From: Candidatus Iainarchaeum sp.
GTDB taxonomy: Archaea; Iainarchaeota; Iainarchaeia; Iainarchaeales; JACQJH01
Direction of reading: 5' to 3'
Length of the DNA: 32,000 nucleotides
Assembly: GCA_016205145.1 (NCBI GenBank)
Contig: JACQJH010000001.1
Location: 210,001 to 242,000 of the forward strand
Part shown: positions 1 to 31,203 of the stretch, piece by piece
Layout: each line of letters begins with the position of its first letter
How positions within the stretch are numbered: the first letter of the stretch is position 1
The notes under the pieces: generated by a model
Database searches by the model: none
Told to the model about the DNA's origin: nothing
What the model saw: only the letters and a program-made list of their open reading frames with translations
Made by a program: the position numbers and the translations under genes

Positions 1-659
1 ATCTTTTCCTTCTGCTTTTCAAGCTGCCCGGCGATTTTTTCCTTTTCCTTGTTCAGCCTGGCAAGGCAAACATTTTGAATCAGTTCGGGTGTCATGTCCT
101 TCAAAGTCAGGCTGTCAGGGTCATAGCCTGCGTCCCTCATGTCCTTTTTCTTGTCAGCAGGAATTGGCATTTTTCCTTCGCTGATCTGGCTACAGAACAA
201 CTGCGAATCAGAATCGCACGAGCTTGACTCCGCGTCTATTGTGCCGCACGCGGTTGGAGCATCCTCTTTTATCGCGCCGACAATTTCGTTTGTCAAAGCG
301 TCCCTGTCGGTTTTGCAGCCCTCAATGAACTTTGCGCTGTTTGATGCAACCCAAGTGTAGGCGGTCGTCATTGCCTTTGTGACGTCCTCTTCAGCCACGT
401 ATTGCGAGTCGGCAAAGCTTGATGAAACATAGCTGTCTATTCCCATGCCGGAATCAAAGCCGAATCCGCCAAATCCCTGCTCGTCTTGCTGTCCGCCGAA
501 GCCTTGCTGCTGGCCGAAACCCTGCTGGAAACCCTGGCCTTGGCCCTGCTGCGGAAACTGTCCCTGCTGCGGAAACTGCGCAAACGCCAAGCCGGCAAAA
601 ACCGCGAACGCGAAAAGCAATGCGATTATTCCAATGCCTTTTTTCTGCAAATTGACCAC
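1..659 (-). CDS. Secreted or membrane-anchored hypothetical protein with a Gln/Gly-rich linker. Only the N-terminal part is in the window; the ORF runs off at position 1 and is absent from the ORF track.
   Basis: Manual minus-strand translation from GTG 659 (alternative TTG 665 or 650) gives VVNLQKKGIGIIALLFAFAVFAGLAFAQ, which is signal/TM-like. It continues FPQQGQFPQQGQGQGFQQGFGQQQGFGGQQ..., then ...TAYTWVASNSAKFIEGCKTDRDALTNEIV...CGTIDAESSSCDSDSQLFC.... The frame stays open to position 1. Confidence 0.6.
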   Translation of the reverse strand, partial: MVNLQKKGIGIIALLFAFAVFAGLAFAQFPQQGQFPQQGQGQGFQQGFGQQQGFGGQQDEQGFGGFGFDSGMGIDSYVSSSFADSQYVAEEDVTKAMTTAYTWVASNSAKFIEGCKTDRDALTNEIVGAIKEDAPTACGTIDAESSSCDSDSQLFCSQISEGKMPIPADKKKDMRDAGYDPDSLTLKDMTPELIQNVCLARLNKEKEKIAGQLEKQKEK

Positions 660-710
660 TGTCAAAGCAAAGTTTAATCCCCTATTTAAGCTTTGCTTTT
701 TAGCTTTTCG

Positions 711-773
711 AACCGGCGGTTTCGTCCGCCGGGTCCGAAACCAAGGCGTATTGCTGATGCAATACGCCGAGTA
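711..773 (+). repeat. Hairpin-module repeat, locus E: CCGGCGG-TTTCGT-CCGCCGG hairpin, GTCCGAAACCAA linker, GGCGTATTGC-TGAT-GCAATACGCC hairpin, then GAGTA.
   Basis: Read directly. Positions 714-749 are an exact 36-nt reverse-complement match to 21122-21157. Confidence 0.85.
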
Positions 774-841
774 TGCCAGCATATGATGCAAAAGTGCACA
801 CTTGGCTTGTATTTGTGCCTGCAACCGGAATCGTTTTTCTT

Positions 842-2143: not shown

Positions 2144-3676
2144 TTAAGACCAGCAGTTTTTCACAGTGTATTCAAGCGAAGCGCTTGAGTCCGCTTCAAC
2201 GGGCACGGAGAACTCGAACGTGTACGCGTCCTTTTTCACGTACTCGAAGTTCGCCTTTGTTATCTGCGCGTTGCCGCCCGCGTTCTCGATTGCCTTCACT
2301 GTAATCTTCTCTTTCTTGTGGTTCCTTATGTCGACCTTGTACGATTGCACCGAGCAGGCCGGAAGGTTCTGCTGTTCAACCGTGGTTTTTTGCGCGGCAA
2401 TGTCGAATGCATAGCCGACAAACAGCTTCCTTTCCTCGTCTTTCGGAGTATGAGTTATGCTGTCTTCGCCCAGGAACTGCGCATTGCTTCCGTCGGCCTT
2501 GTAAACCCTCACAGTGCCGGCAGGCAATGGCATTCCGAGACTGCTTTTTTCGTCGTTCTTGAAGTTGACCATGACTTTAACGCTGTTCGCGCCATCCGAA
2601 TCGCTGCCCGTATAATAGTAGCGGTTGCCCTCGAAGACGAATTCCTTCTGCACTGCAACGCTTTTCGCGCGCAGCAGGGAAATCTGCTTCGACTCCTTGT
2701 CCAAAACGTCGGTTTTCCGGTCAAGCGTGTAAGTATGGTATTCGAAAGCGTTGGCCTGCGAAAAGCCTGGCGCGCTTCCCCCTGCGGCATCCGCTGCCTT
2801 GGATTCTGCCAGCATGGGCACAGGGTAGGCGTTTCTGCCCTGCAGATTCAGTTGTCCGGCAAGCAATGTGAGCGAGGCATTCCTGAAATCAATGCCGGTG
2901 CTGTTTGAAACAGTCACGTTTCCAGAAAAGTCCATTGCGGTCTCGTCATCATTGAGCTTTGCAACGTAGTCCGCGCTCCAGCCGAGGCCGCCGGTCAGAT
3001 AGCTGACATTGACTTTCCTGTTGCCGGAGCTTTCCGCGAAAACTTTGAGCACAAGCGTGGGCTTTGTCAGCAAACCGGGTTTCTGCCCGAACGAAACCGT
3101 TGAAACGTTCTGCAATGAAACTATGCCGTCCTGAGTTTCAAGGACTATGCCGTCGGAATGGCTCAGCAGCTTTCCGGTGTATGATTTCGCTTCCGCGCCG
3201 CCCTGCACTTCAACTGTTATGGTTTCGCCGACAAATTTTTCCAGCAAAGCCTGCCTTGACGCGGTATCATAATCGTAATTCTGTTCCGCTACGAAAGTTT
3301 CAGGGAACATGAGATCATTGAACAAAACCGTGCCCGTGTCGATGAGCTGTGAAACGTCGCTGAAGTTCACTAGATTCAGGCCCTTTTCAAGGGAAATCTC
3401 CCTTGTCTCGTTCACCAGGCCGAGATTGCCCTGGTAGATTGTAAGCGCGAGGCCTGCATTGTCCGGCAGGCTCTGGACTTCCTGTGCAAACGCCTGCAGG
3501 TAGGCTTTCGGCCTTTCCGAGGAAACGACCTTCGAATACTCGCCTATCCTGTACTGCGGTGTTTCCTTCATTCCGGGGTTGAACAGCAATGCAACCACTC
3601 CGACAATGAAAATGACCGCGATGACCGCCAGCAGCTTTTTCGCAAAACCATTTTCCAGAAAATCCTTTCCAACCAT
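2144..3676 (-). CDS. DUF4139-like membrane-anchored protein.
   Basis: 510-aa ORF with an N-terminal TM helix (LLAVIAVIFIVGVVALLF). The central motif VSYLTGGLGWSADYVAKL resembles the conserved W-x-x-Y core of DUF4139 proteins. The family call is by eye only. Confidence 0.7.
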   Translation of the reverse strand: MVGKDFLENGFAKKLLAVIAVIFIVGVVALLFNPGMKETPQYRIGEYSKVVSSERPKAYLQAFAQEVQSLPDNAGLALTIYQGNLGLVNETREISLEKGLNLVNFSDVSQLIDTGTVLFNDLMFPETFVAEQNYDYDTASRQALLEKFVGETITVEVQGGAEAKSYTGKLLSHSDGIVLETQDGIVSLQNVSTVSFGQKPGLLTKPTLVLKVFAESSGNRKVNVSYLTGGLGWSADYVAKLNDDETAMDFSGNVTVSNSTGIDFRNASLTLLAGQLNLQGRNAYPVPMLAESKAADAAGGSAPGFSQANAFEYHTYTLDRKTDVLDKESKQISLLRAKSVAVQKEFVFEGNRYYYTGSDSDGANSVKVMVNFKNDEKSSLGMPLPAGTVRVYKADGSNAQFLGEDSITHTPKDEERKLFVGYAFDIAAQKTTVEQQNLPACSVQSYKVDIRNHKKEKITVKAIENAGGNAQITKANFEYVKKDAYTFEFSVPVEADSSASLEYTVKNCWS

Positions 3677-5502: not shown

Positions 5503-5581
5503 AATCCGGCTTCTTTGCTTCTTCGTTTACTGACGAAAACAGCAAACATATTTAAGAACGGCCGAGCCAAATTATTTACCG

Positions 5582-5812
5582 GTGATTTGTTTGGCGAGAA
5601 AGTTCACTGTTGTCGTTGAAAAGGACCAAGACGGCGTTTTTGTAGCATCGGTTCCGGAACTACCCGGATGCCATACGCAGGCAGACTCCCTGAAAGAGCT
5701 TAAGGCAAACATAAAGGAAGCGATTGAAGCCTATTTGGAATCCATGGAAAAGGATGAGCTTCCAACAACTAAATTCGTCGGAATCAGGGAAGTCGAGGTT
5801 GCGGCAAAGTGA
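5582..5812 (+). CDS. hicB: HicB family antitoxin (UPF0150-like).
   Basis: 76-aa ORF. FTVVVEKDQDGVFVASVPELPGCHTQADSLKELKANIKEAIEAYLE is the typical HicB N-domain pattern. It overlaps the downstream HicA by 4 nt (GTGA). Confidence 0.85.
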   Translation: MICLARKFTVVVEKDQDGVFVASVPELPGCHTQADSLKELKANIKEAIEAYLESMEKDELPTTKFVGIREVEVAAK

Positions 5813-6036
5813 CAGCGCTCAGGCCAGTGAAGCCTGAGCAAATACTGAAAGTCGCCAAGCTGCTCGGCTTTGAACTTGTGCATGTCAGAGGCTCCCACCA
5901 CGTTTTCAAAAACGCGGCTGGCAAGCGGATAACTATTCCGGTCCACAAAGGCAAGCTTATTGGCAAGGGCCTGCTGTTGAAAATAATCAGGGAAGACTTC
6001 GGTCTGACGAAAGAAGAATTCGAACGCTTGTTGTGA
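5809..6036 (+). CDS. hicA: HicA family mRNA-interferase toxin.
   Basis: 75-aa ORF. KPEQILKVAKLLGFELVHVRGSHHVFKN...ITIPVHKGKLIGKGLLLKIIRE is the YcfA/HicA pattern with the catalytic GSHH. Confidence 0.9.
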   Translation: MTALRPVKPEQILKVAKLLGFELVHVRGSHHVFKNAAGKRITIPVHKGKLIGKGLLLKIIREDFGLTKEEFERLL

Positions 6037-6108
6037 ATGTGCAAAATAATCATCTCATTACTGCTCACGCTTGAAATGAAGTGAAAATTTTTATTCTGCG
6101 CCGGCGTT

Positions 6109-6608: not shown

Positions 6609-6964
6609 TTACTCGGCGTGTCGCGCAGCGGCACGCCTTAATCCCGACGCAGGGGGCTCCGCCCCCTTGCAAACCCCTGAAACATTTACCGCTACTTACT
6701 CGGCGGTTCACAACGTGAACCGCCTTGGTTTCGGCACACGCGCCCGAAAGCGCGTTGTCCTTTGTTAATGCAAAAGCAGATGGGTACGGCGCAACAGCGA
6801 AATATCCGTCGTCGAGCCCGCTTGTGAAATCATCGCCATCAGGCGCAGCGCTATGCGAGCAAAGCGAGCGCAGGGGTTGCACCCCTTGCGAACCCTGCAA
6901 AGCATGCGTGGTGTTCCGCAGCAGCGCGAACACCACAAAGCGCACCAGCCGGGCGTGACGGCTT
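6609..6964 (-). repeat. Hairpin-module repeat, locus A. It is the longest composite and starts 1 nt after the tRNA-Asp 3' end.
   Basis: Minus-sense order of modules:
- AGCCG-TCACGCC-CGGCTGGTGCG.
- GTGGTGTTC...GAACACCAC hairpin.
- GCAAGGGG-TGCA-ACCCCTGCG hairpin.
- A linker.
- ...CCGAAACCAAGGCG-[GTTCAC GTT GTGAAC]-CGCCGAGTAA.
- AAATGTTTCAGGGG.
- GCAAGGGGG-CGGA-GCCCCCTGCG.
- AAGGCG-[TGCCGC TGC GCGACA]-CGCCGAGTAA. Confidence 0.85.
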
Positions 6965-7125
6965 CGCCCGCACCGGGAGTCGGACCCGGCCCACGGCCTC
7001 GCTGCATTGCAGTACTCCATAAAAGAAACTTTTCTTTCTTTTTGGGGTAAAGCACTTTTTCTTTCTTCGCAAGAAAGAAAAAGGGCTTCGACAGGGCCGT
7101 ATCCTAGCCGATAGACCATACGGGC
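6965..7125 (-). tRNA. tRNA-Asp (GTC) with an approximately 89-nt intron at or near position 37/38.
   Basis: Hand fold:
- Acceptor: GCCCGTA/TGCGGGC, discriminator G.
- D arm: GTCT-ATCGGCTA-GGAT.
- Anticodon stem: CGGCC/GGCCG; loop CTGTCGA.
- T arm: CCGGG-TCCGACT-CCCGG.
- Intron: about 7000-7088. A CUGU/GCAG 4-bp helix flanked by 3-nt bulges (BHB-like) can be drawn. Confidence 0.8.
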
Positions 7126-13454: not shown

Positions 13455-14006
13455 TTGGTTTATCATGGTGGTTTGTTGGACATACTGAAGGCTTTGGCCA
13501 ACTCCAACCGGCGCAACATGGTCCAGATTCTCCTCAAAAAGGAAACCCACATTGCCGCGCTCGCAAGGGAATTGAACATTTCCAATCCGGTTGCATTGAA
13601 GCACGCGCGCATTCTTGAGGATAACGGCCTGATTGAACGGGAAAAAGCGGGGAACACGCACATACTGCACATCCGCAAGGACGCGCTCAAGAAAATACGG
13701 CTGGCATCGGAGCTTTTTGAAAAGCCAATTTCTTTCAGCGTCGCGAAAGGCACTTTGCTTTTGGACGCGCTTTCAAAGGTCGATGGCCTCGAGATCGAGA
13801 ACACGAAACAGGGCGCGTTCATCAAGGCAATTGACGGCAAGGAAGGCTACTTTGTCTTTGAAATCAACGGCAAGTTTCCGACAAAGCCGATCGAGGAAAT
13901 CGAAATTTCCGGCAGGACGGAAATCGAGTTGAAGCGCCTTCTGCCCGTCATCGGAAAAAAAATCGTTTTCGAAACAGCCGGTTCCGTCCGGCTGGTCCGG
14001 GACTAA
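13455..14006 (+). CDS. ArsR-family winged-helix regulator fused to a DUF4430-like C-terminal domain.
   Basis: HTH region: LDILKALANSNRRNMVQILLKKETHIAALARELNISNPVALKHARILEDNGLIE. C-terminal part: GTLLLDALSKVDGLEIENTKQGAFIKAIDGKEGYFVFEINGKFPTKPIEEIEISGRTEIEL. The true start is probably TTG 13473 or 13476, after GGTGG. Confidence 0.75.
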   Translation: MVYHGGLLDILKALANSNRRNMVQILLKKETHIAALARELNISNPVALKHARILEDNGLIEREKAGNTHILHIRKDALKKIRLASELFEKPISFSVAKGTLLLDALSKVDGLEIENTKQGAFIKAIDGKEGYFVFEINGKFPTKPIEEIEISGRTEIELKRLLPVIGKKIVFETAGSVRLVRD

Positions 14007-14135
14007 GGCGTATCGTTGCAAAATCTTGGATTTTGCGACGTGCCCAGAATCTGTGGATTCTGGTGCATGCTTACGCAATACGCCGAGTAATTCTATTCCG
14101 CATTTCGGGGTTTTACGCGGGGGTGTCCCATGTGT
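14007..14135 (+). repeat. Hairpin-module repeat, locus D, an expanded version.
   Basis: The outer stem GGCGTAT...(GC)AATACGCC (14007-14084) encloses two inner hairpins, GCAAAATC-TTG-GATTTTGC and CCAGAATC-TGTG-GATTCTGG. It is followed by GAGTAA, CATTTCGGGG and a degenerate G/C hairpin. It fills the whole gap between two convergent genes. Confidence 0.8.
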
Positions 14136-16756: not shown

Positions 16757-16915
16757 TCAGTTGTTGTCGGATTTTCTTTTCTGATAGCAGTCCCTGCAGT
16801 AAACGGGCCTTTTGCCATCAGGCTTGAATGGAACCTTTGTTTCAGCTCCGCAGTCAGCGCATACCGCATCGTATAGCTGCCTTGGGCCGCCAAAGTCCCT
16901 GTTGCCGTAAGCCAT
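16757..16915 (-). CDS. CxxC-x17-CxxC zinc-ribbon small protein (52 aa). It is not in the supplied ORF track because it is under 60 aa.
   Basis: Manual translation: MAYGNRDFGGPRQLYDAVCADCGAETKVPFKPDGKRPVYCRDCYQKRKSDNN. An AGGTGA Shine-Dalgarno-like motif lies about 9 nt upstream. The listed 72-aa ORF 16753-16971 is in another frame. Confidence 0.8.
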   Translation of the reverse strand: MAYGNRDFGGPRQLYDAVCADCGAETKVPFKPDGKRPVYCRDCYQKRKSDNN

Positions 16916-17051
16916 TTGTTTTTTTCACCTTTTTTTCTTTTAGTTTTGCGCGCAAACTCTCGCCTGCGCACACATTCTTTTTCACACGCTAAACCTTAAA
17001 AGCCCGCAGGTTTGCCTTTTTTTTGCCTTTTTTTCCCGGTTTTTTGCCCGC

Positions 17052-17069
17052 CTGAAACCTTTAAAAGCC
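17052..17069 (+). promoter_or_regulatory. BRE/TATA-like promoter (CTGAAACCTTTAAAAGCC) about 150 nt upstream of the DEAD-box helicase start.
   Basis: The same 14-mer CTGAAACCTTTAAA recurs at 16728-16741, and AAACCTTAAAAGCC occurs at 16991-17004. Confidence 0.45.
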
Positions 17070-17216
17070 TTTGTTGGCAGAACCTTCTACAGAGATTAAA
17101 GGAATAAGAACCCTATTTTTTTCTTAACTGAAAAACTTCGCTGCCCGGGCGGTTTCCGCTTTTGCAGGATAGTGTTTTTTTTGCCTTTTTCTTCTAAAAC
17201 CAAGGAGAGGTACACA

Positions 17217-18323: not shown

Positions 18324-18365
18324 AAAAAGCGCCTCATTTCCTTCTTTTCTTTTTCTTTGCTTTTT

Positions 18366-19295
18366 TTAATTTGCGCTTGGCTTAAGGCTTTTTTTTGCGG
18401 CTTTTTTGCCTGGAAGCAGGCATTCTTTGTACTGGTTTATGTATGCTTTGTAGAGGTATTTGACGAACGGGCTTTCCTTTTTTTTCGCGTCGACTTCCCT
18501 CAGCATCAGGTAATACAGCATTTTTTCGGAGTTGAAAATGTTCAGCAAAGGATAATTGTTTTTGAACAGCAGATGGTTCATCGCCAGCCTTGAAATCCTG
18601 CCGTTCCCGTCCATGAACGGGTGGATTCTCACGATTTTCAAATGGGCCAATGCAGCGGTTTCAAAGGGGTGCAGGGTTTGTCCGGCCTGCTTAATCCATG
18701 AGAAAAATTTGTCCAGTTCCGGCTGGACCTGTTCCGGTTTCGGCGGCAGATAGTTTCCGACAATGTTCTGCCTCGTCCTGATTCTGCCTGCTTCGGGATG
18801 GATGCCATTCATTTCGATTGCATGGAGTTTAAGCAACAGGCTTTGGTCGAATTTGCCGTTGTAACCAAACAGGAAATCAATGCATTCTTTCATGTTTTCG
18901 ACTTCCCGGACGTCGCGCTTCGCATGCCTTGCCACAGGCTTCCCTTCAAGGATATTTTTCGTTTCCTCATAGCTCAGGGAATTGCCCTCGATTGCGTTGG
19001 TGTTGTAAATGAAGCTTATTATCTGCTCTTTTTCGGTTTTCCACAGGCCTTTGCCTATTTTGCGGGTTTTCAGGTAATTTTCCCTGAGCAGGTCGATTAT
19101 TTTCATCTGCTTCAGCGTCAAAATCCTCCCGATCGGCTGGGCAAGTTCAAGCTCCTTTTCGGCCTGGGCAAGGTTCGACAGGTCGGTTCCGACATATTTG
19201 CTTATTTTTTTCCACTTGTTTTTGGAGACACGGATGTTTTTCATCAGGTAAAAATACCCGCGGCCGCCGATTTTCTTTTTCTCGATATATGGCAT
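18366..19295 (-). CDS. Fic family protein, class II, with an in-cis inhibitory helix.
   Basis: Fic motif HPFMDGNGRISR. An upstream T-N-A-I-E-G matches the (S/T)xxxE(G/N) inhibitory motif. I prefer ATG 19295; the track TTG 19316 lies inside a promoter repeat. Confidence 0.88.
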   Translation of the reverse strand: MPYIEKKKIGGRGYFYLMKNIRVSKNKWKKISKYVGTDLSNLAQAEKELELAQPIGRILTLKQMKIIDLLRENYLKTRKIGKGLWKTEKEQIISFIYNTNAIEGNSLSYEETKNILEGKPVARHAKRDVREVENMKECIDFLFGYNGKFDQSLLLKLHAIEMNGIHPEAGRIRTRQNIVGNYLPPKPEQVQPELDKFFSWIKQAGQTLHPFETAALAHLKIVRIHPFMDGNGRISRLAMNHLLFKNNYPLLNIFNSEKMLYYLMLREVDAKKKESPFVKYLYKAYINQYKECLLPGKKAAKKSLKPSAN

Positions 19296-19302
19296 GGTAA
19301 AA

Positions 19303-19355
19303 ATTAGGGGGCACAAAATTTAAAAGCATATATTAGGGGGCACAATTTAAAAATT
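19303..19355 (-). promoter_or_regulatory. Tandem duplicated promoter-like unit upstream of fic.
   Basis: ATTAGGGGGCACAA occurs exactly at 19303-19316 and 19332-19345, each followed by (AA)TTTAAAA. In minus sense this reads TTTAAA(TT)TTGTGCCCCCTAAT. The proximal TATA centre is about 27 nt from ATG 19295, implying a leaderless mRNA. Confidence 0.5.
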
Positions 19356-19365
19356 GTGTAATAAT

Positions 19366-19523
19366 TCCCTCCTCCCTGATTTGCACAGGGGATCTCACCG
19401 TTGCCGCTTTTTTCGCGGCGCAACAGCGTTCTTTCGAACCTGCTGCCCAGCCATTCAAGGCAGTGCACAAGAGCGTGCACGAAAATCTACAGCGGTGCGT
19501 GTTAGCTACTACACCAAGGAGGG
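19366..19523 (-). tRNA. tRNA-Tyr (GTA) with an approximately 85-nt intron.
   Basis: Hand fold:
- Acceptor: CCCTCCT/AGGAGGG (C1-G72), discriminator A.
- D arm: GTGT-AGTAGCTA-ACAC.
- Anticodon stem: CACCG/CGGTG; loop CTGTAGA.
- Variable region: AGATC.
- T arm: CCCTG-TGCAAAT-CAGGG.
- Intron: between loop and 3' stem, with a drawable BHB (CUGU/GCGG helix, AGA and CAA bulges). Confidence 0.85.
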
Positions 19524-19605
19524 CTCGGCATGCTGCCGAGCGTGCAGCCTTGTGGTATCGCTGACGCGATACCACGCGTGCCCGCCCAAAACAGTTCCTG
19601 CCGGC
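19524..19605 (-). other. Structured 5' leader of tRNA-Tyr (two hairpins). The TATA-like TTTAAAA is at 19629-19635.
   Basis: Minus sense: GTGGTATCGC-GTCA-GCGATACCAC, then GCTCGGCA-GCA-TGCCGAGC abutting tRNA nucleotide 1. The first hairpin is homologous to modules at 21349-21382 and 6902-6939. Confidence 0.55.
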
Positions 19606-20542: not shown

Positions 20543-20983
20543 TTAAACCTTTGTTTTCATTACGCGTTTCATGCCGGGAATTTCCACGCTTGAATAGTCG
20601 ACGCTCAGTCCTGCTTTTCCAAGCGCTTTTTTGAGCGCGTAAACCTTGCAAAACCCCGCCAACTCTTTCTGCTCGTTTTTCTGCAGGCTTTCGACTGCGG
20701 TTATCTCGTTTATCACGCCGTTGACTTTTCCGGAGGACGCTGCCTTCAGGATTTCCGCGATTTCGGCTTCCGATTTTCCGGCCGGCAGTTCGGCCAGCAT
20801 TGCGTCAAGCTTTTTCAAATCCACAAGCTTTCCGAGGTTCTGCTCCACTTTCTTGTCCACGCTTATCGTCAGGCTTGCCAGGAATTCCATTACCGTGCGC
20901 GGGTCGGTTTTCTCCTCTATCTTGAGTTTCTTGATTGCGACCCAGTCATCGTAGTTTGCGATTAATTGAATGCTCTTGTCCAC
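20543..20983 (-). CDS. Hypothetical soluble protein.
   Basis: 146-aa ORF, probably in an operon with the PAP2 gene (26-nt gap). No motif recognised. Confidence 0.55.
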   Translation of the reverse strand: MDKSIQLIANYDDWVAIKKLKIEEKTDPRTVMEFLASLTISVDKKVEQNLGKLVDLKKLDAMLAELPAGKSEAEIAEILKAASSGKVNGVINEITAVESLQKNEQKELAGFCKVYALKKALGKAGLSVDYSSVEIPGMKRVMKTKV

Positions 20984-21030: not shown

Positions 21031-21160
21031 CTTACTCGGCGTTTCACAACGCAGGGGCCTTTGCCCCTTGCAAACCCCCGAAATATTTGTTGTGTCCTAC
21101 TCGGCGTGTCGCATCAGCGGCACGCCTTGGTTTCGGACCCGGCGGACGAAACCGCCGAGA
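21031..21160 (-). repeat. Hairpin-module repeat, locus B, which forms the tRNA-Lys 3' trailer.
   Basis: Minus-sense order of modules:
- CGGCGG-TTTCGT-CCGCCG hairpin.
- GTCCGAAACCAAGGCG-[TGCCGC TGAT GCGACA]-CGCCGAGTA.
- AAATATTTCGGGGG.
- GCAAGGGGC-AAA-GGCCCCTGCG.
- A truncated GTTGTGAAACGCCGAGTAAG. Confidence 0.85.
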
Positions 21161-21234: not shown

Positions 21235-21284
21235 AATTAGGGCGGTTAAATTTCGCTGGTCATTAAACTTGTTATTAATTCACT

Positions 21285-21307
21285 TATGCCCACTGATTTT
21301 AAACTTT
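21285..21307. repeat. Exact 23-nt direct repeat, copy 1 (TATGCCCACTGATTTTAAACTTT).
   Basis: Identical to 21553-21575. The minus sense AAAGTTTAAAATCAGTGGGCATA contains a TATA-like TTTAAAA. Confidence 0.9.
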
Positions 21308-21339
21308 TGTCAATGGGCTATTGGTCTTTTGGGGTTCGT

Positions 21340-21552
21340 GTTGGGCATGTGCGGTATCGGCGGTAGCGAAGATACCACAAACAGCACTGGCTTTTGCGTG
21401 ATGGCTTGCCCGGCGTATTGCGATACGCAATACGCCTTGGTTCCGCACGCAGGGGGCTCTGCCCCCTCGCACGCCCCCGAAACATTTACTACGATCACTC
21501 GGCGTATTGCGATTAGCAATACGCCTTTGTTCGCACCAGCCGGGCGTTCGGC
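21340..21552 (-). repeat. Hairpin-module repeat, locus C, about 1.5 composite units bracketed by the 23-nt repeats.
   Basis: Minus-sense order of modules:
- AGCCG-AACGCC-CGGCTGGTGCG.
- AAAGGCG-[TATTGC TAATC GCAATA]-CGCCGAGTG.
- AAATGTTTCGGGGG.
- GCGAGGGGGC-AGA-GCCCCCTGCG.
- CCAAGGCG-[TATTGC GTATC GCAATA]-CGCC.
- GGTATC...GATACC hairpin. Confidence 0.85.
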
Positions 21553-21575
21553 TATGCCCACTGATTTTAAACTTT
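21553..21575. repeat. Exact 23-nt direct repeat, copy 2.
   Basis: Identical to 21285-21307. It lies 10 nt beyond the tRNA-Thr 3' end. Confidence 0.9.
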
Positions 21576-22290: not shown

Positions 22291-22382
22291 AATTTAATTT
22301 ACTGCTTGTTTTGGTTTAAAAGGTGTCGTTTTTCGGCTTTGGCGTTGTTTTTTCTTTTTTTCCACACACGTAAAATATCATT

Positions 22383-26771: not shown

Positions 26772-26790
26772 ATCGCCGTCATCGCCCGGA

Positions 26791-26897
26791 GCCGTCACGT
26801 CCGGCTGATACGTGCGGCACGTAAAGTGCCGCTGCCTCGCTGTTGCTCGGAACCGGCGGGTGCGACGTTGAGGATTCTCACTGCATTCGAATCCTCT
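26791..26897 (+). repeat. Hairpin-module repeat, locus G.
   Basis: AGCCG-TCACGTC-CGGCTG, GCGGCAC-GTAAA-GTGCCGC, GAACCGGCGG..., and GAGGATTC-...-GAATCCTC. It lies between the convergent hppA and tRNA-Glu. Confidence 0.65.
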
Positions 26898-27090
26898 GCC
26901 TGCTTAATTAGTTTTTTTGCTCGTAGAATTTGTGGAACTTTGTGTGCAGAATGCCTTCGCCTTGTTCAGTCTTTCAGTCATTCCGGTTCAATTCCTGATG
27001 GCAATGGGCCTTTTGCAGTTCGCCACAGCCATGCCTGGCGCAACAATCGCGTTCCCGGTTTACTTTCCCAGAAACGCAAAAAATTAGGAA

Positions 27091-27236
27091 TGCCCCGGCC
27101 GGGATTCGAACCCGGGTCGCGGCCTCACCCCGCTCTTGAATTTTTTGGAAAATCCTTGAGAGGGCCGAGTGCTTTCGGCAACAGCTGCTTTTTTTTATAA
27201 AAACAAACCGTTTTAGCCGGACTACACCACCGGGGC
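27091..27236 (-). tRNA. tRNA-Glu (CTC) with two introns: about 40 nt in the D-loop/D-stem junction and about 31 nt at 37/38.
   Basis: Hand fold:
- Acceptor: GCCCCGG/CCGGGGC, discriminator A.
- D arm: GTGT-AGTCCGGCTAA-[intron about 27173-27212]-GCAC.
- Anticodon: CGGCC-CTCTCA-[intron about 27126-27156]-A-GGCCG.
- T arm: CCGGG-TTCGAAT-CCCGG.
- Length: spliced length 75 nt.
- Downstream: a T-run follows the 3' end. Confidence 0.85.
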
Positions 27237-27878
27237 ACTGCAGAATTTTTTGAACCTGTTTATGTGCTTTTTGTTGCTGAACCCGATTTCAGTGAAATAA
27301 CGCAGGACTTCTTTAGAATCTCCCATTGAGCACTGCATTGTATTCCTGTCCTTCTTTTGGGTCCATTTAGATACTCTGTAGCCCAATATTTTAAATGCCT
27401 TTGTTATGCTGCTTTGGATTGTAGGCGATGCCGTGGCGAACCAGATTGTGGGCGTTTTGTGCCTGCGCGTTTTCGGGTAAACGCTTCCGTCAGTGTCAAT
27501 CAATCCCCTGACACAGGCTTTAAGGTAACCGCTTTTTCCAAGAACCCAGCAGGGAATTGCCGCGCCATTCGTGGTTTTATTGCCGTTTTTTATGCCAAAA
27601 TGCATCAGCGTGTGCACCAAATTTTTGCTTTGCTTGAATATGACGACAGCGTTTCCGGTTTTTGGAAATTTTATGCTGAATTCGGTTCCAAACACTTTTT
27701 TGAACAGGCCCGAAGTATAATTTGTCAGATAATCAAAATCGTTCCCGCGATGGCCTATAATTCTTATTTGGTAAATGCTTTTTTCTTTTATAACCTGGCA
27801 GTTTCCGTCGCCAAGCATTATGCCGATAATTTCCGCAAGCTCCGCGCTTTTCTTTTTTGCAAGCAATTTCGGTTTCAT
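27222..27878 (-). CDS. Free-standing double-motif LAGLIDADG homing endonuclease.
   Basis: Motifs IIGIMLGDGN and VRGLIDTDGS lie about 100 aa apart. The start is ambiguous: ATG 27878, ATG 27926, or GTG 27998, which overlaps the U32 stop as GTGA. The stop TAG (27222-27224) lies inside tRNA-Glu. Confidence 0.85.
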   Translation of the reverse strand: MKPKLLAKKKSAELAEIIGIMLGDGNCQVIKEKSIYQIRIIGHRGNDFDYLTNYTSGLFKKVFGTEFSIKFPKTGNAVVIFKQSKNLVHTLMHFGIKNGNKTTNGAAIPCWVLGKSGYLKACVRGLIDTDGSVYPKTRRHKTPTIWFATASPTIQSSITKAFKILGYRVSKWTQKKDRNTMQCSMGDSKEVLRYFTEIGFSNKKHINRFKKFCSAPVV

Positions 27879-27994
27879 CGGCAAGAATTTGCCGTTCTTC
27901 CGCGGCTGCAGCCGGCAATTACCCATAATGTACTGTTGTTTTTGTGGACAAAAGGGGTTTGCCAAGTGGCTTTCCCCTGATTCTTGATTTGGCC

Positions 27995-30382
27995 TCACAC
28001 CGCCTTTTCATAGCTTGCGCGCGTGAACGGCATGTCCGCAAAGCCTTTTCCACCGCCAAGCTTTTCCTTGACGGATGCGATGATTTTTTCCGCGTCTTCG
28101 CCTGAAACGCTGCCAACATCGACCCTGACAACATCGGCAATCGCTTCGAGCTTTTCAAGCTCCGGAACCATGTTCATCGCCATAGGATTGTAGAGGTGCG
28201 TGCGCTCGCTTTCATCCAGTTCAACAGCATATTTCCACTTGTTCCTGTCGATGAGAGTATACCTGCCTTTTTTTGGCAATATTTTGGTTTCGATTATCAT
28301 TATTTCCGGAAGTTCGAATGCGACAAGCTCAATCTTTGCGTCCGTGCGTTTCCGTGTAGCGGAAAGCTGTTTGAGCGTCAGTTCCCCTGACGGCAAAATC
28401 CTTTCGACCTGCGGGTTTTTGGCGAAAAAGTTTGCGGCAATGGAATTGAACACGTTCAAGTTTTTGCCGATGATGATTTTTTCAAAGCCCTGCCCCGCAA
28501 GCCAGTGATAGAGGCCGAGGTTGTTGCATTCGATTGCCGCGCCCGCAAGCTCCGCGCTTTTGCCTTTCACTGTTTCCGACAGCTTTTTGGCGAGCGCTGC
28601 AAGCTCATGGTCCTTCATTATCACGGGCGTTGAAAGCACAAGCTGCATTGCGTGCTCGGAGCAGATTTTTTGCGCTTCAAGCAATGTTTTTTTGTCCGCG
28701 TTTTCCGGGAACGAAACCGCGCAGGGCTTTGCCTGCAGGAAAGCATTCAACTGCTTGAGCGAGGAAACCTTGACTGAGATGGCGGCCTTTCTGCCTTTTT
28801 CATGCCCCGCGTCCTTCAGCAGTTCTTTTTTCCGTTCCTCGAATTTTTTAGCATCAACGTTTTTCCTGAAACCTTCAAGCTTTTTTTTGGTGAACGCGTC
28901 GATGGCTTTCCTGCGCAGGTCGTTGAGCTTGCTGAACGGAACCATGAGGCCCTCGTCGACCTTGACGCTGATGCTTTTCAATTCAAACAATGTTTCGCCG
29001 GTCTTTGAAAGCTTTTCCTCGGCAACCTTTTCTCCGAGCGGGATTTTTTCGGCTTTTTTCGGCGTGAAATCCGAGACGACTTCCGCGGAGGTTTGCCCGT
29101 CAAAAGCCCTTATCCTGAATTCTTTGTGTGAAATTTTCGCTTCAAGGTTCACTTCCGGCTTTTTCATGGTCTTGATTGACGAGTAAGCAAGGTCGGTGAG
29201 CTGTTTGGACTGCACCTTGAAGATTGTCCACCCTTTTTTGATTTCGTGCGGAACCTCGATTTCGACTATTTCGTTTGCAAACGCGTGTTCCATTTCCTTT
29301 CCGTTTTTCAGGATTTTTTTGGCAAAAAAGTCCACTCTCTCGTCGCCCAGCTTGTGCGACAATTTGTCCCATTTCCTGACGCGCTCGAACAATTGGACCT
29401 TTATCTTGCCGTCGGCGTATTCAAGCACTTTCGCGACGCGTATTCCGACCTTTCCCGGATAATCCTTTTTTATGATGTCGTCGTTCTTGCCGTTGAAGTG
29501 CCCTGCCGAAAAGTCGCGGTTGTAGGCTATGCGCAGCTGCTTTATCTCGTCTTCCGAAACCGCTTCTTTTCCGCCGAACGCGTTATCGATTGCTTTCCTG
29601 TAAACCCTTGTCGCAATTGCAACATATTCAGTGCCCTTTTTCCTTCCCTCGATTTTGAATGCCGAAACGCCTGCTTCGGCAAGCTGTTTTATCATGGGCA
29701 CCGCGAAAAGGTCCTTCTGCGACAGCAGATAGCCTTCGTCAATCCTTTTCCCGCCTTCTTCCAAATCGTAAAACAGGCGGCAGTTCTGCGCGCACCTTCC
29801 GCGGTTGCCGGAGCGCTTGAACGAAACGCTGCTCGCAAAGCACTGCCCCGAATATGCTACACACATCGCGCCATGCACAAAGCACTCAACCTCTATTCCG
29901 GTCCCAACCCGTGATTTCATTTCATGGATTTCTTCAACCGAGTTTTCCCTTGCCAGCACCGCGCGCTTGATGCCAAGATCTTTTGCAAACAGCAGTCCTT
30001 CGGTGTTGTGGATTGTCATCTGCGTGCTTGCATGCAATCTCAGCCCGGGCAAAAGCTCGTGCAGGCTGTGCGCCAGGCCGACGTCCTGCACGATTACAGC
30101 GTCAATGCCATGCTCGTACGCACTCTTCGCCATGTCGATTGCCGCGCCGATCTCGAACTCGTTGAGCAGAATGTTCAATGTAAGGTAGGCTTTCCTGCCG
30201 TGCAAATGCAAATAGTCGATTGCTTCTTTCACCTGCTCAGGCGAAAAGTTTTGCGCGCCGATCCTTGCATTGAACGCCTGGTAGCCGAAGTAAACAGCGT
30301 CCGCGCCGTTTGCGACCGCAGCTTTCATGTGCTCAAAGCTGCCCGCCGGGGCGACAAGCTCCGGTTTGATTTGTTTCACCAT
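27995..30382 (-). CDS. Peptidase U32 family protein, long form with a C-terminal extension.
   Basis: 795-aa ORF. U32 signature region EVECFVHGAMCVAYSGQCFAS. The N-terminus KPELVAPAGSFEHMKAAVANGADAVYFG is typical. Confidence 0.9.
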   Translation of the reverse strand: MVKQIKPELVAPAGSFEHMKAAVANGADAVYFGYQAFNARIGAQNFSPEQVKEAIDYLHLHGRKAYLTLNILLNEFEIGAAIDMAKSAYEHGIDAVIVQDVGLAHSLHELLPGLRLHASTQMTIHNTEGLLFAKDLGIKRAVLARENSVEEIHEMKSRVGTGIEVECFVHGAMCVAYSGQCFASSVSFKRSGNRGRCAQNCRLFYDLEEGGKRIDEGYLLSQKDLFAVPMIKQLAEAGVSAFKIEGRKKGTEYVAIATRVYRKAIDNAFGGKEAVSEDEIKQLRIAYNRDFSAGHFNGKNDDIIKKDYPGKVGIRVAKVLEYADGKIKVQLFERVRKWDKLSHKLGDERVDFFAKKILKNGKEMEHAFANEIVEIEVPHEIKKGWTIFKVQSKQLTDLAYSSIKTMKKPEVNLEAKISHKEFRIRAFDGQTSAEVVSDFTPKKAEKIPLGEKVAEEKLSKTGETLFELKSISVKVDEGLMVPFSKLNDLRRKAIDAFTKKKLEGFRKNVDAKKFEERKKELLKDAGHEKGRKAAISVKVSSLKQLNAFLQAKPCAVSFPENADKKTLLEAQKICSEHAMQLVLSTPVIMKDHELAALAKKLSETVKGKSAELAGAAIECNNLGLYHWLAGQGFEKIIIGKNLNVFNSIAANFFAKNPQVERILPSGELTLKQLSATRKRTDAKIELVAFELPEIMIIETKILPKKGRYTLIDRNKWKYAVELDESERTHLYNPMAMNMVPELEKLEAIADVVRVDVGSVSGEDAEKIIASVKEKLGGGKGFADMPFTRASYEKAV

Positions 30383-30409
30383 AAGAATCTCTTTTTCAAA
30401 ATCAGGGTT

Positions 30410-30634
30410 TTATTCTGTTTTTCCGCTTGCCGGCAGGGATATGCGCGTGGATTTTTTTGAGTCAAACCGTTTCTCAAAGTTCAGAATGGTATACCCGACT
30501 GTTTTGCCGCTTTTGGCGTCTTTTCTTTCCAGTATGTCCTCTCCAATTTCCCCGCAGACCGCTTTTTTCGGCTTTCCGATGACTATCTCAAGTATGTCGC
30601 CTTCCTTGTCGTAGTGCAGGCTTATTTTTTCCAA
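30410..30634 (-). CDS. DUF2283-like small protein (putative antitoxin).
   Basis: 74-aa ORF. The LHYDKEGDILEIVIGKP...VGYTILNF pattern is typical of DUF2283. It overlaps the upstream gene by 13 nt. Confidence 0.7.
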   Translation of the reverse strand: MEKISLHYDKEGDILEIVIGKPKKAVCGEIGEDILERKDAKSGKTVGYTILNFEKRFDSKKSTRISLPASGKTE

Positions 30635-30927
30635 CTCGTTTCACCTGGTTTTTCAGTCTTTGAATAATATCCGGCCAGTACAAACCCGCTGTTTTCATGC
30701 GTCTTTATAACAATTATTAGTAGCCTGCCGTTTTTAACCTTTTTATGGTACAGCTCAACTTTGCCGTCAAGCCTGCTTTTTTTGATGAAGTCCGGGTTGC
30801 AGACAGTTTCCTCGATTTCCTTGAATTTGCCTTCAAGTTCCGGCCTGAACATCGTCATGTGCGAATACCTTTCAGCCGTCAGGGAAATTTTCCTTCCCAG
30901 CGGATCAGTGGCGCGGAACAGTTCCAT
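30622..30927 (-). CDS. DUF4258/PBECR-like putative RNase toxin.
   Basis: 101-aa ORF. Motifs: ISLTAERYSHMTMFRPEL ... CNPDFIKKSR ... LLIIVIKTHENSGFVLAGYY. The family call is by eye. Confidence 0.6.
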   Translation of the reverse strand: MELFRATDPLGRKISLTAERYSHMTMFRPELEGKFKEIEETVCNPDFIKKSRLDGKVELYHKKVKNGRLLIIVIKTHENSGFVLAGYYSKTEKPGETSWKK

Positions 30928-31021
30928 GCTTTTCCAAAAAGCCCCGGCTGGGAAAATTTAATAACTGTTCGAGGTTTTAGTCAATAAACGAAGGCCGATG
31001 ATGACCAGGCTGAGATTTGAG

Positions 31022-31094
31022 AGCCGCTTTCGTCCGGCTGGTTCGACGCCCCATGCCAATTTCATTCGCATGGGGCTGCGCGCTGTTGCGCGGG
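31022..31094 (+). repeat. Hairpin-module repeat, locus H.
   Basis: AGCCG-CTTTCGTC-CGGCTGGTTCG, then GCCCCATGC-...-GCATGGGGC, then TGCGCGC-TGTT-GCGCGGG. It lies downstream of asd. Confidence 0.6.
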
Positions 31095-31203
31095 AACTGC
31101 CTGAAAGCGCTTGATGAAGAATCGTTATGAGTGCCGAGGCTTTCGCTTTATTGGCGGTTTGAATGGTTCATTGGCCTGCAAGACATGATATTTTTCTTCT
31201 GAC

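Follow-up and report, generated by a model that had tools for sequence, protein, structure and literature searches.

The 32,000-nt stretch of contig JACQJH010000001.1 examined here (positions 210,001 to 242,000; hereafter the window) belongs to a metagenome-assembled genome of Candidatus Diapherotrites (DPANN), has a GC content of 51% and carries archaeal-type tRNAs. It holds eight arrays of short GC-rich hairpin modules, the longest of which forms the trailer of a tRNA-Asp gene. On balance, we think it probable that these arrays represent a family of modular, non-autonomous palindromic DNA repeats, which is specific to one lineage and resembles the repetitive extragenic palindromes and bacterial interspersed mosaic elements (REP/BIME) or the BOX elements of bacteria. 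This mobile-repeat interpretation is based on the shuffling of modules, their presence in both orientations relative to transcription, their presence or absence as whole units, their nesting in hairpin loops, their occurrence in identical form at loci that are not linked and in genomes that have diverged, the breaks of assemblies within arrays, and the narrow taxonomic range. A previous sequence-only reading of this DNA had proposed either REP/BIME-like elements or an undescribed family of structured RNAs. The former is favored over an RNA gene by the presence of both orientations, the turnover among relatives, the module-sized indels and the lack of a strand preference, although the arrays are only REP/BIME-like, since the terminal tag and the inverted doublets of the bacterial systems are lacking and no REP-associated tyrosine transposase (RAYT) gene was found in the window.

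Module Types and Array Composition

The arrays lie at 714-773 (array 1, plus strand), 6609-6964 (array 2, minus strand, 356 nt), 13976-14135 (array 3, plus strand), 19522-19587 (array 4, plus strand), 21031-21160 (array 5, minus strand), 21308-21553 (array 6, minus strand), 26790-26900 (array 7, plus strand) and 31022-31094 (array 8, plus strand), and make up 3.8% of the window. Some of the limits first assigned to them had to be shifted: array 3 starts at 13976 instead of 14007, array 7 at 26790 instead of 26791, and array 6 spans about 21308-21553 instead of 21340-21552. Modules are joined head to tail over 60-360 nt in a single orientation per array; the arrays start with M0 or M1, and those containing H1 have CGCCGAGTA at or close to their end.

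At least eight module types can be distinguished. Their common plan is a short hairpin rich in GC, in which the flanks or the loop are conserved and the stem covaries freely. M0 reads AGCCG-loop-CCGGCT followed by GGTGCG; M1 has a variable 5-6-bp stem, the conserved loop TTTCG(G/T) and then (C)CGAAACC; H1 consists of AAGGCG, a 6-bp variable stem and then CGCCGAGTA; the AAAT box is AAATRTTTCRGGGG; H2 is GCRAGGGGG-loop-CCCCCTGCG with a bulged purine; M5 comprises two A/T-cored hairpins, GCAAAATC/GATTTTGC and CCAGAATC/GATTCTGG; M6 reads YTTGT-GGTRT(T)C...G(A)AYACC-RCRCRTGCCC and M7 GAGGRWTY...RWYCCTC-TGC. H1, M0, M1, H2 and M6 are hairpins of 20-35 nt that lie outside the bodies of coding sequences (CDS). 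In array 2, read in the sense of the tRNA, M0 (6963-6941), M6 (6940-6902) and an H2-like hairpin (6889-6869) precede a unique core of 111 nt (6868-6758), after which follow M1c (6754-6727), an H1 with the stem GTTCAC (6726-6697), an AAAT box (6687-6674), H2 (6670-6648) and a second H1 with the stem TGCCGC (6639-6610); a T6 run (6602-6597) lies 7 nt further. A C/D-box small RNA in the unique core was considered and dropped, as conserved boxes are lacking.

The recurrence of the modules far exceeds chance. CGCCGAGTA has six exact matches in the window against 0.09 expected from shuffled sequences, at the very positions given in the sequence-only reading (765, 6610, 6697, 14081, 21033 and 21098), and the variant noted at 21496 is CGCCGAGTG. 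For the hairpin frame AAGGCG-N15-17-CGCCGRG, there are six occurrences where 0.02 would be expected, and AAATRTTTCRGGGG is found three times in exact form. Pairwise BLAST and a repeat search link all eight loci through common modules, which combine differently from array to array, so that both the recurrence of a module set at eight loci and its description as a mosaic family hold. Arrays 7 and 8 have just the first hairpin module in common with the other loci.

Folding and Covariation of the Hairpins

Compared with shuffled sequence, the folds of the arrays are more stable, whichever strand is taken (z-scores of -2.7 to -5.3). In the ten copies of H1, 96% of the cells pair and four of the ten pairs have changed on both sides; in the eight copies of M1, the four unrelated stems CGGCGG, AGCCGR, CGCGC and ACGCAG all pair and five of the six pairs of the hairpin have changed on both sides. 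The pairing scores of H1 and M1 were not attained by any shuffle, and every slid register collapsed. The variants of the first stem listed in the sequence-only reading (TATTGC/GCAATA, GTTCAC/GTGAAC and, with one C.A mismatch, TGCCGC/GCGACA) are indeed complementary, and so are the two stems of a second module, GGTATC/GATACC and GGTGTTC/GAACACC, both of which are present. The compensatory changes in the H1 and M1 stems therefore uphold the view that the covariation reflects selection on the hairpin, and the conservation of the module flanks next to covarying stems points to selection on both sequence and structure.

Which strand is under selection cannot be read from the imperfect pairs. The only non-pairing cells of H1 are the C.A of the TGCCGC/GCGACA variant, which are G.T on the opposite strand. 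In M1, the loop TTTCG can pair with the downstream CGAAA. Of the cells of this helix, 97.5% are paired; a compensatory change from TTTCG/CGAAA to TTCCG/CGGAA occurs once, and there are two U.G cells, which pair on the sense strand only. This asymmetry of wobbles and mismatches singles out neither strand; the hairpins are under selection.

Turnover Among Relatives and Taxonomic Range

For comparison, contigs assembled from short reads (Logan; SRR12113383-5) with 100% identity to parts of the window were available, as well as a relative (ERZ4903072 contigs L093, L108 and L109; ~87-94% DNA identity to the window), a relative with ~80% DNA identity (L096/L097), more distant Diapherotrites loci (L104/L106; 65-68% protein identity) and an additional locus with a tRNA-Pro spacer that was found by a metagenome scan (L011/L012). 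Arrays were directly observed at nine loci, i.e., the eight in the window and the one in L011.

Orthologous sites show a bimodal pattern: arrays 2, 4 and 5 have no homology to those of the relatives, whereas arrays 6 and 8 are 98.5-100% identical (array 8 is 100% identical in L109). The tRNA-Asp trailer is 356 nt long in the window vs. 66 nt in L108, where it consists of a new M1 variant and H1, and the site 5' of tRNA-Tyr (array 4) contains different modules in L093/L094 and L096. The tRNA-Lys trailer is made up of M1a-H1 alone in L096/L097 and of another M1/H1 variant with compensatory changes in L093. Entire segments are polymorphic as well. A 65-nt AAAT-H2-half-H1 segment of array 5, missing from L096/L097, is placed directly 3' of one CGCCGAGTA and closes with another, so that 9-nt repeats bound it, and an 89-nt H1-AAAT-H2 unit in the Thr-Lys spacer (array 6) is missing from L093-L095. 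M5 is nested inside the M7 loop in L093 and L011 and inside the H1 loop in array 3 of the window, and it is missing from the same M7 hairpin in L096. The flanking direct repeats differ in length (9, 23 and 33 nt, and one with 10 nt of exact or ~19 nt of imperfect match).

The identity between the ERZ4903072 relative and the window is itself a mosaic over the background of 87-94%. The tract at 30400-31165, which comprises small CDSs and array 8, is 98-100% identical to L109, the tract at 21235-21443 (array 6 and the tRNA-Lys leader) is 98.5% identical to L093, and the HicAB pair of the window (5550-6050) is 99.8% identical to its counterpart. This mosaic suggests recent recombination tracts or strong constraint. 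L108 has, inserted at 1911-2346, a second HicB/HicA pair that separates TspO from the tRNA-Asp array and is missing from the window.

Copies also occur outside the window, where the same composite fills the spacer between the two tRNA-Pro genes of L011/L012. M1c (34/34 nt) and M0b (22/22 nt) are identical in L011 and the window, which have no other DNA in common. Right after the M1-H1-AAAT-H2 array of L011 and before an M0 module, at 3188-3205, the 3' end of tRNA-Pro(TGG) is copied imperfectly over 19 nt, of which 10 nt are exact (GGCAGCCCCA); such a repeat of a tRNA 3' end was seen in L011 only. Furthermore, 7 of 15 short-read contig ends in the window fall inside arrays, at three distinct sites (p ~6e-7), array 3 being the end point of three contigs. 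This is the pattern expected of multicopy sequence and implies that more copies exist.

The range of the family seems narrow. Matches of an H1 covariance model are confined to the window and its close relatives, with none in L104/L106 or in ~0.9 Mb of unrelated genomes, and BLAST with all modules agrees. One composite pattern, CGCCGAGTR-N6-12-AAATRTTTCRGGGG, has no match in 185,579 species genomes. The best match of the window's H+-PPase in a scan of species genomes is only 64% identical, too distant to inform on synteny or taxonomy. Pattern scans of IMG/VR gave chance matches in coding DNA or none, BLAST against plasmids and phages gave no module match, and six-frame translations of the arrays found nothing at E<=1 in the protein database. 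No Rfam 15 family matches the arrays even at E<=10; at gathering score only the tRNAs were recovered, the best array matches (13-21 bits) being far under threshold. A match to a known Rfam, insertion sequence (IS) or MITE (miniature inverted-repeat transposable element) family, covariation at background level and purely local copies had been named beforehand as grounds for abandoning the family, and none of these was found.

Position of the Arrays Relative to Genes

According to the sequence-only reading, the copies never occur inside a CDS. This is correct for the bodies of all CDSs, and all arrays are extragenic, except that the first hairpin of array 3 overlaps the final ~30 nt of the open reading frame (ORF) at 13455-14006. 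Five arrays are in sense and three (arrays 1, 4, and 8) in antisense orientation to the upstream gene. None of the arrays has an internal T5+ or A5+ run, and where a T5+ run is present after the gene end, it lies beyond the array, by 7, 9, 14 and 15 nt for arrays 2, 5, 3 and 7, respectively. Because the arrays are situated between the 3' end of a gene (or a tRNA terminus) and the first oligo-T, we infer that they are transcribed as 3' trailers or 3' untranslated regions (UTRs).

Four of the eight arrays in the window and the array in L011 adjoin tRNA genes, and array 2, as had been stated of this copy, follows tRNA-Asp, beginning 1 nt after its 3' end. A GC-rich M0/M1 hairpin lies within 0-3 nt of the tRNA terminus at 5 of the 14 tRNA ends examined, viz. 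the 3' ends of tRNA-Asp, -Lys and -Pro(TGG) and, in mirror arrangement, the 5' ends of tRNA-Tyr and -Pro(GGG), and array 6 adjoins the 3' end of tRNA-Thr. Arrays 1, 3, 7 and 8 follow protein-coding genes and have no tRNA nearby.

Comparison with Known Repeat and RNA Systems

The arrays share many properties with REP/BIME. The modules are short, imperfect palindromes rich in GC, whose foot is conserved and whose stems have changed in a compensatory manner, and with their size and extragenic position they fall within the definition of REPs (extragenic, GC-rich imperfect palindromes of 20-40 nt). They lie mostly just beyond gene 3' ends, form mosaic arrays with other short motifs and are lineage-specific, probably co-transcribed and present in either orientation. 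REP/BIME reach tens to hundreds of copies per genome; here, eight loci in 32 kb and the one in L011 were seen, and the assembly breaks inside arrays imply further copies. There are also clear differences. To our knowledge, systems of this type have been described only in bacteria. Within an array the modules keep one orientation, whereas REPs alternate or form inverted doublets (REPIN), and the variety of hairpin types, the nesting in hairpin loops and the abutting of tRNA termini set the arrays apart. REP palindromes carry a conserved GTAG or CGTC tetranucleotide at one end (PMC3733652), whereas the conserved 3'-side tail is CGCC-GAGTA here; GTAG is present in 3 of the 10 H1 copies by chance extension. 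Finally, the host is an archaeon, and no RAYT gene was found in the 32-kb window, L011 or the contigs of the relatives. RAYT subclasses have been reported only in bacteria, with only IS200-type TnpA in Archaea (PMC6006769). An archaeal analogue would need a different mobilizing activity.

The pneumococcal BOX elements (boxA-boxB(n)-boxC) are likewise modular, intergenic and of stable predicted fold, and they, too, have no known mobilizing enzyme. The arrays resemble them in being composed of a few short boxes in variable number with stable predicted folds, but their sequences are unrelated, the host of BOX is bacterial, and BOX has a fixed A...C frame, whereas the arrays start with M0 or M1 and have more module types. 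In behavior, the closest analogue may be the GC clusters of yeast mitochondria, which merge and shuffle, have stems that are spared by mutation and are exchanged between lineages by recombination in conserved flanks (PMC4478555). Their mobilization is unresolved, although intron-encoded endonucleases have been proposed (PMC4478555). Both systems consist of GC-rich intergenic hairpins that are shuffled while the hairpins are preserved, and have no known mobilizing enzyme; the GC clusters differ in their AT-rich organellar host genome and in the short fixed target duplications that have been reported for them, and are unrelated in sequence. In the window, a free-standing LAGLIDADG homing-endonuclease gene (27222-27998, minus strand; MBI4052651.1) lies immediately upstream of a tRNA gene with two inserts, and any link between this gene and the mobilization of the hairpins is speculation.

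For some DPANN genomes, automated surveys have reported MITEs at high density (PMC11602168), so that the mere presence of small repeats in this group is not new. Like MITEs and the palindrome-associated elements derived from IS200/IS605, the arrays are small, non-coding, multicopy, intergenic and taxon-specific. In contrast to MITEs, they lack terminal inverted repeats spanning the element (the array ends, M0/M1 and CGCCGAGTA, are not mutually inverted), a fixed target-site duplication and any transposase remnant, and they are modular instead of a single unit. IS200/IS605-derived (PATE-like) elements are characterized by subterminal hairpins at either end, by insertion 3' of a fixed tetra- or pentanucleotide that is not duplicated, and by a cognate TnpA/TnpB. 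In the arrays, there are hairpins at both ends, and the 65-nt segment of array 5 lies 3' of CGCCGAGTA; Pfam searches of the larger ORFs of the window and L011 identified neither TnpA nor TnpB.

Terminators made of a hairpin and an oligo-T tract are resembled insofar as, in arrays 2, 5 and 7 as well as in L096 and L108, a T5-T7 run is found 7-15 nt downstream of the terminal H1 hairpin. In Archaea, however, an oligo-T tract alone suffices for termination, and up to eight hairpins per array, some arrays being antisense, is more than termination needs. C/D-box small RNAs and kink-turn RNAs, whose conserved boxes are RUGAUGA and CUGA, were rejected, as the CTGA of one AAAT box is CCGA in the others and there is no conserved C box, and attC-like or ORB-like sites were dropped because their core motifs are absent.

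Origin and Maintenance of the Arrays

Whole modules are gained and lost among relatives, also in existing hairpin loops and beside hairpin feet, and whole arrays are replaced. If the arrays are mobile repeats, this could be brought about by a trans-acting enzyme encoded elsewhere in the genome that recognizes hairpins or single-stranded DNA, or by template switching and recombination that the hairpins promote. Module flanks are strictly conserved even where genomes share just ~80% identity, which suggests that some factor reads them in a sequence-specific manner. As 3' trailers or 3' UTRs, the transcribed arrays would fold into harmless, possibly stabilizing hairpins, and the repeats may be tolerated, and perhaps even useful, on account of their placement between gene ends and oligo-T terminators.

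Several points weigh against this interpretation. Arrays were seen directly at only nine loci, and the covariation draws on a small number of independent stems, with four variants of H1 and four of M1. Searches of the larger ORFs with Pfam identified no transposase, HUH/Y1 enzyme, integrase or reverse transcriptase in the window and L011. Each polymorphism may be an insertion or a deletion, and the variable length of the direct repeats does not fit a classical transposase and could result from recombination or slippage. In addition, the near identity of arrays 6 and 8 to those of the relative exceeds that of the coding background (87-94%) and could point to functional constraint instead of selfish turnover.

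The last point is also an argument for the view that the arrays are a family of cis-acting structured RNA elements under selection within tRNA trailers and mRNA 3' UTRs. Such elements might stop 3'-to-5' exonucleases, help in oligo-T termination or direct processing, with M1 possibly acting as a small pseudoknot or switch. The position of the arrays upstream of the first T5+ after the gene end without an internal T5+, the covariation of the hairpins and the sense orientation of five of the eight arrays are all consistent with this. So is the M1 helix between loop and downstream sequence with its high degree of pairing, its compensatory change and its two sense-only U.G pairs. However, the C.A non-pairs of H1 on the sense strand are G.U on the other strand, so that the evidence on the strand conflicts, and the proposed pseudoknot would be sterically tight, with 0 nt between the stems and 4 nt to cross a 6-bp stem. 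Moreover, three arrays have no flanking transcription units other than those to which they are antisense, orthologous tRNA-Asp trailers differ wholesale (356 vs. 66 nt) between genomes that are ~90% identical, the distant Diapherotrites do not have the modules, and no Rfam family matches. Taken together, we consider it unlikely that selected RNA elements are the primary nature of the arrays.

The arrays could also be a true archaeal REP-type system with a novel, non-RAYT enzyme or a co-opted role in RNA, although this seems unlikely. The modules would then be actively maintained, be recognized by their conserved feet and loops and insert at tRNA termini and in hairpin loops. One candidate for the enzyme would be an as yet unrecognized nuclease of Archaea with specificity for hairpins or single-stranded DNA, another a trans-acting homing endonuclease, and the RNA hairpins, including a small M1 pseudoknot right behind the tRNA 3' end, might have been co-opted for trailer processing or 3'-end protection in a DPANN genome of reduced size. 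If true, this would be the first REP/BIME-type system in Archaea and a natural experiment on hairpin repeats that target tRNA ends and other hairpins.

Alternatively, the arrays may be neutral by-products of local duplication, slippage, template switching and gene conversion between GC-rich palindromes. The direct repeats of variable length (9, 10-19, 23 and 33 nt), the tandem duplication seen in the 89-nt unit with H1 at both ends, the bimodal identity (~100% or no homology), which suggests recombination tracts, and the lack of a transposase in the window and L011 would all agree with such a passive origin. Yet it does not readily account for identical modules (M1c and M0b) at unlinked loci and in genomes that are ~80% identical, nor for the repeated abutting of tRNA termini, and conserved flanks together with covarying stems imply selection. 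A purely passive origin is, therefore, judged quite improbable. Relics of site-specific integration at tRNA genes, either att-site scars or miniature integrative elements, would fit the tRNA-adjoining arrays, the L011 array between the tRNA-Pro 3' end and its partial copy and the 23-nt direct repeat that brackets array 6, but are highly improbable, since the same modules follow protein-coding genes without a nearby tRNA, no integrase was found in the window or L011, the modules are absent from the phage and plasmid databases and IMG/VR, nesting and covariation are left unexplained, and the duplicated tRNA segment of 10-19 nt is far shorter than typical archaeal att sites.

The genomes of DPANN are small and streamlined, but ~4% of these 32 kb consists of a fast-evolving hairpin mosaic. 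For practical purposes, the arrays break short-read assemblies in this lineage and mark recombination hot spots between strains.

Individual Arrays and Neighboring Genes

Array 1 consists of M1a (714-742; hairpin CGGCGG/CCGCCG, loop TTTCGT, then GGTCCGAAACC) and H1 (743-773) with the stem TATTGC/GCAATA. It lies 69 nt beyond the stop of GGR (842, minus strand) and is antisense to both flanking minus-strand genes; at the left edge of the window, a gene for a secreted-like protein runs from ~650 off the edge on the minus strand. An ORF that overlaps the array (445-786, plus strand) looks spurious. An 11-mer, GCCGGGTCCGA, is common to M1a (726-736) and the T-arm of tRNA-Asp (6980-6990), possibly by coincidence; the idea that M1 is a relic of a tRNA T-arm was dropped, as other M1 variants do not contain it.

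In array 3, M1b (13976-14004) is followed by an H1 with its arms at 14005-14015 and 14074-14089 and M5 (14018-14063) inside its loop, and by a degenerate AAAT-H2 (14099-14129); across the nested insert, this H1 still scores 26.8 bits in the covariance model. Array 4 is formed by an M0-like hairpin (19522-19547), which abuts the 5' end of the tRNA-Tyr gene on the opposite strand, and M6 (19548-19587). Array 5, the trailer of tRNA-Lys, contains M1a (21157-21129), an H1 with the stem TGCCGC (21128-21098) and the 65-nt segment (21097-21033) with AAAT box, H2 and half-H1, and a T5 run follows 9 nt further.

Array 6 occupies the spacer from tRNA-Thr to tRNA-Lys and comprises M0 (21553-21532), H1 (21527-21496), AAAT-H2 (21487-21448), a second H1 (21438-21408), a degenerate M0 with M6 (21406-21343) and a tail. 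On either side of it stands one copy of a direct repeat of 23 nt without mismatch, AAAGTTTAAAATCAGTGGGCATA, at 21553-21575, 10 nt after tRNA-Thr, and at 21285-21307, both on the minus strand. This repeat includes a TATA-like TTTAAAA, and a single copy is present upstream of tRNA-Lys in L096/L097, which have neither tRNA-Thr nor array 6. Possibly, a promoter has been duplicated here, from which array 6 could be transcribed.

Array 7 starts 19 nt after the stop of the H+-PPase gene and contains M0 (26790-26812), a hairpin at 26813-26832 and M7 (26870-26900), with a T7 run at 26912. Array 8, with an M1-like hairpin (31022-31045) and GC-rich hairpins at 31049-31075 and 31079-31092, lies beyond the stop of Asd and antisense to it. 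Nearby, where identity to the relative reaches 98-100%, a 101-aa ORF (30622-30927, minus strand) has a weak match to PBECR3/RelE-like nucleases (E 0.002, below cutoff) and may form a toxin-antitoxin pair with an adjoining 74-aa ORF.

The arrays sit beside intron-bearing tRNA genes that are overlooked by standard tools. The gene for tRNA-Asp(GTC) (6965-7125, minus strand) has an 89-nt intron and is called by ARAGORN, as a tRNA of 72 nt, once this intron is removed, and that for tRNA-Tyr(GTA) (~19355-19513, minus strand; boundaries approximate) has an intron of ~85 nt and is 95% identical in L093; as they stand, both are missed by ARAGORN and Rfam. These two introns are AT-rich and unrelated to the modules, and tRNA introns or mobile introns related to the bulge-helix-bulge motif were, consequently, dropped as an origin of the arrays. 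A third intron-bearing tRNA gene, that adjacent to the LAGLIDADG gene, is a match to the Rfam tRNA family with inserts of 48 and 33 nt (27091-27236, minus strand).

The window also encodes a DUF2666 protein (20543-20983), and TspO and eight further proteins encoded in it have NCBI accessions that run consecutively from MBI4052623 to MBI4052655. T-rich direct repeats, TTTGCCTTTTTTT (repeat families D1-D3), are found in AT-rich intergenic DNA at 16915-17192, 18345-18406 and 22338-22363, and are unrelated to the hairpin modules.

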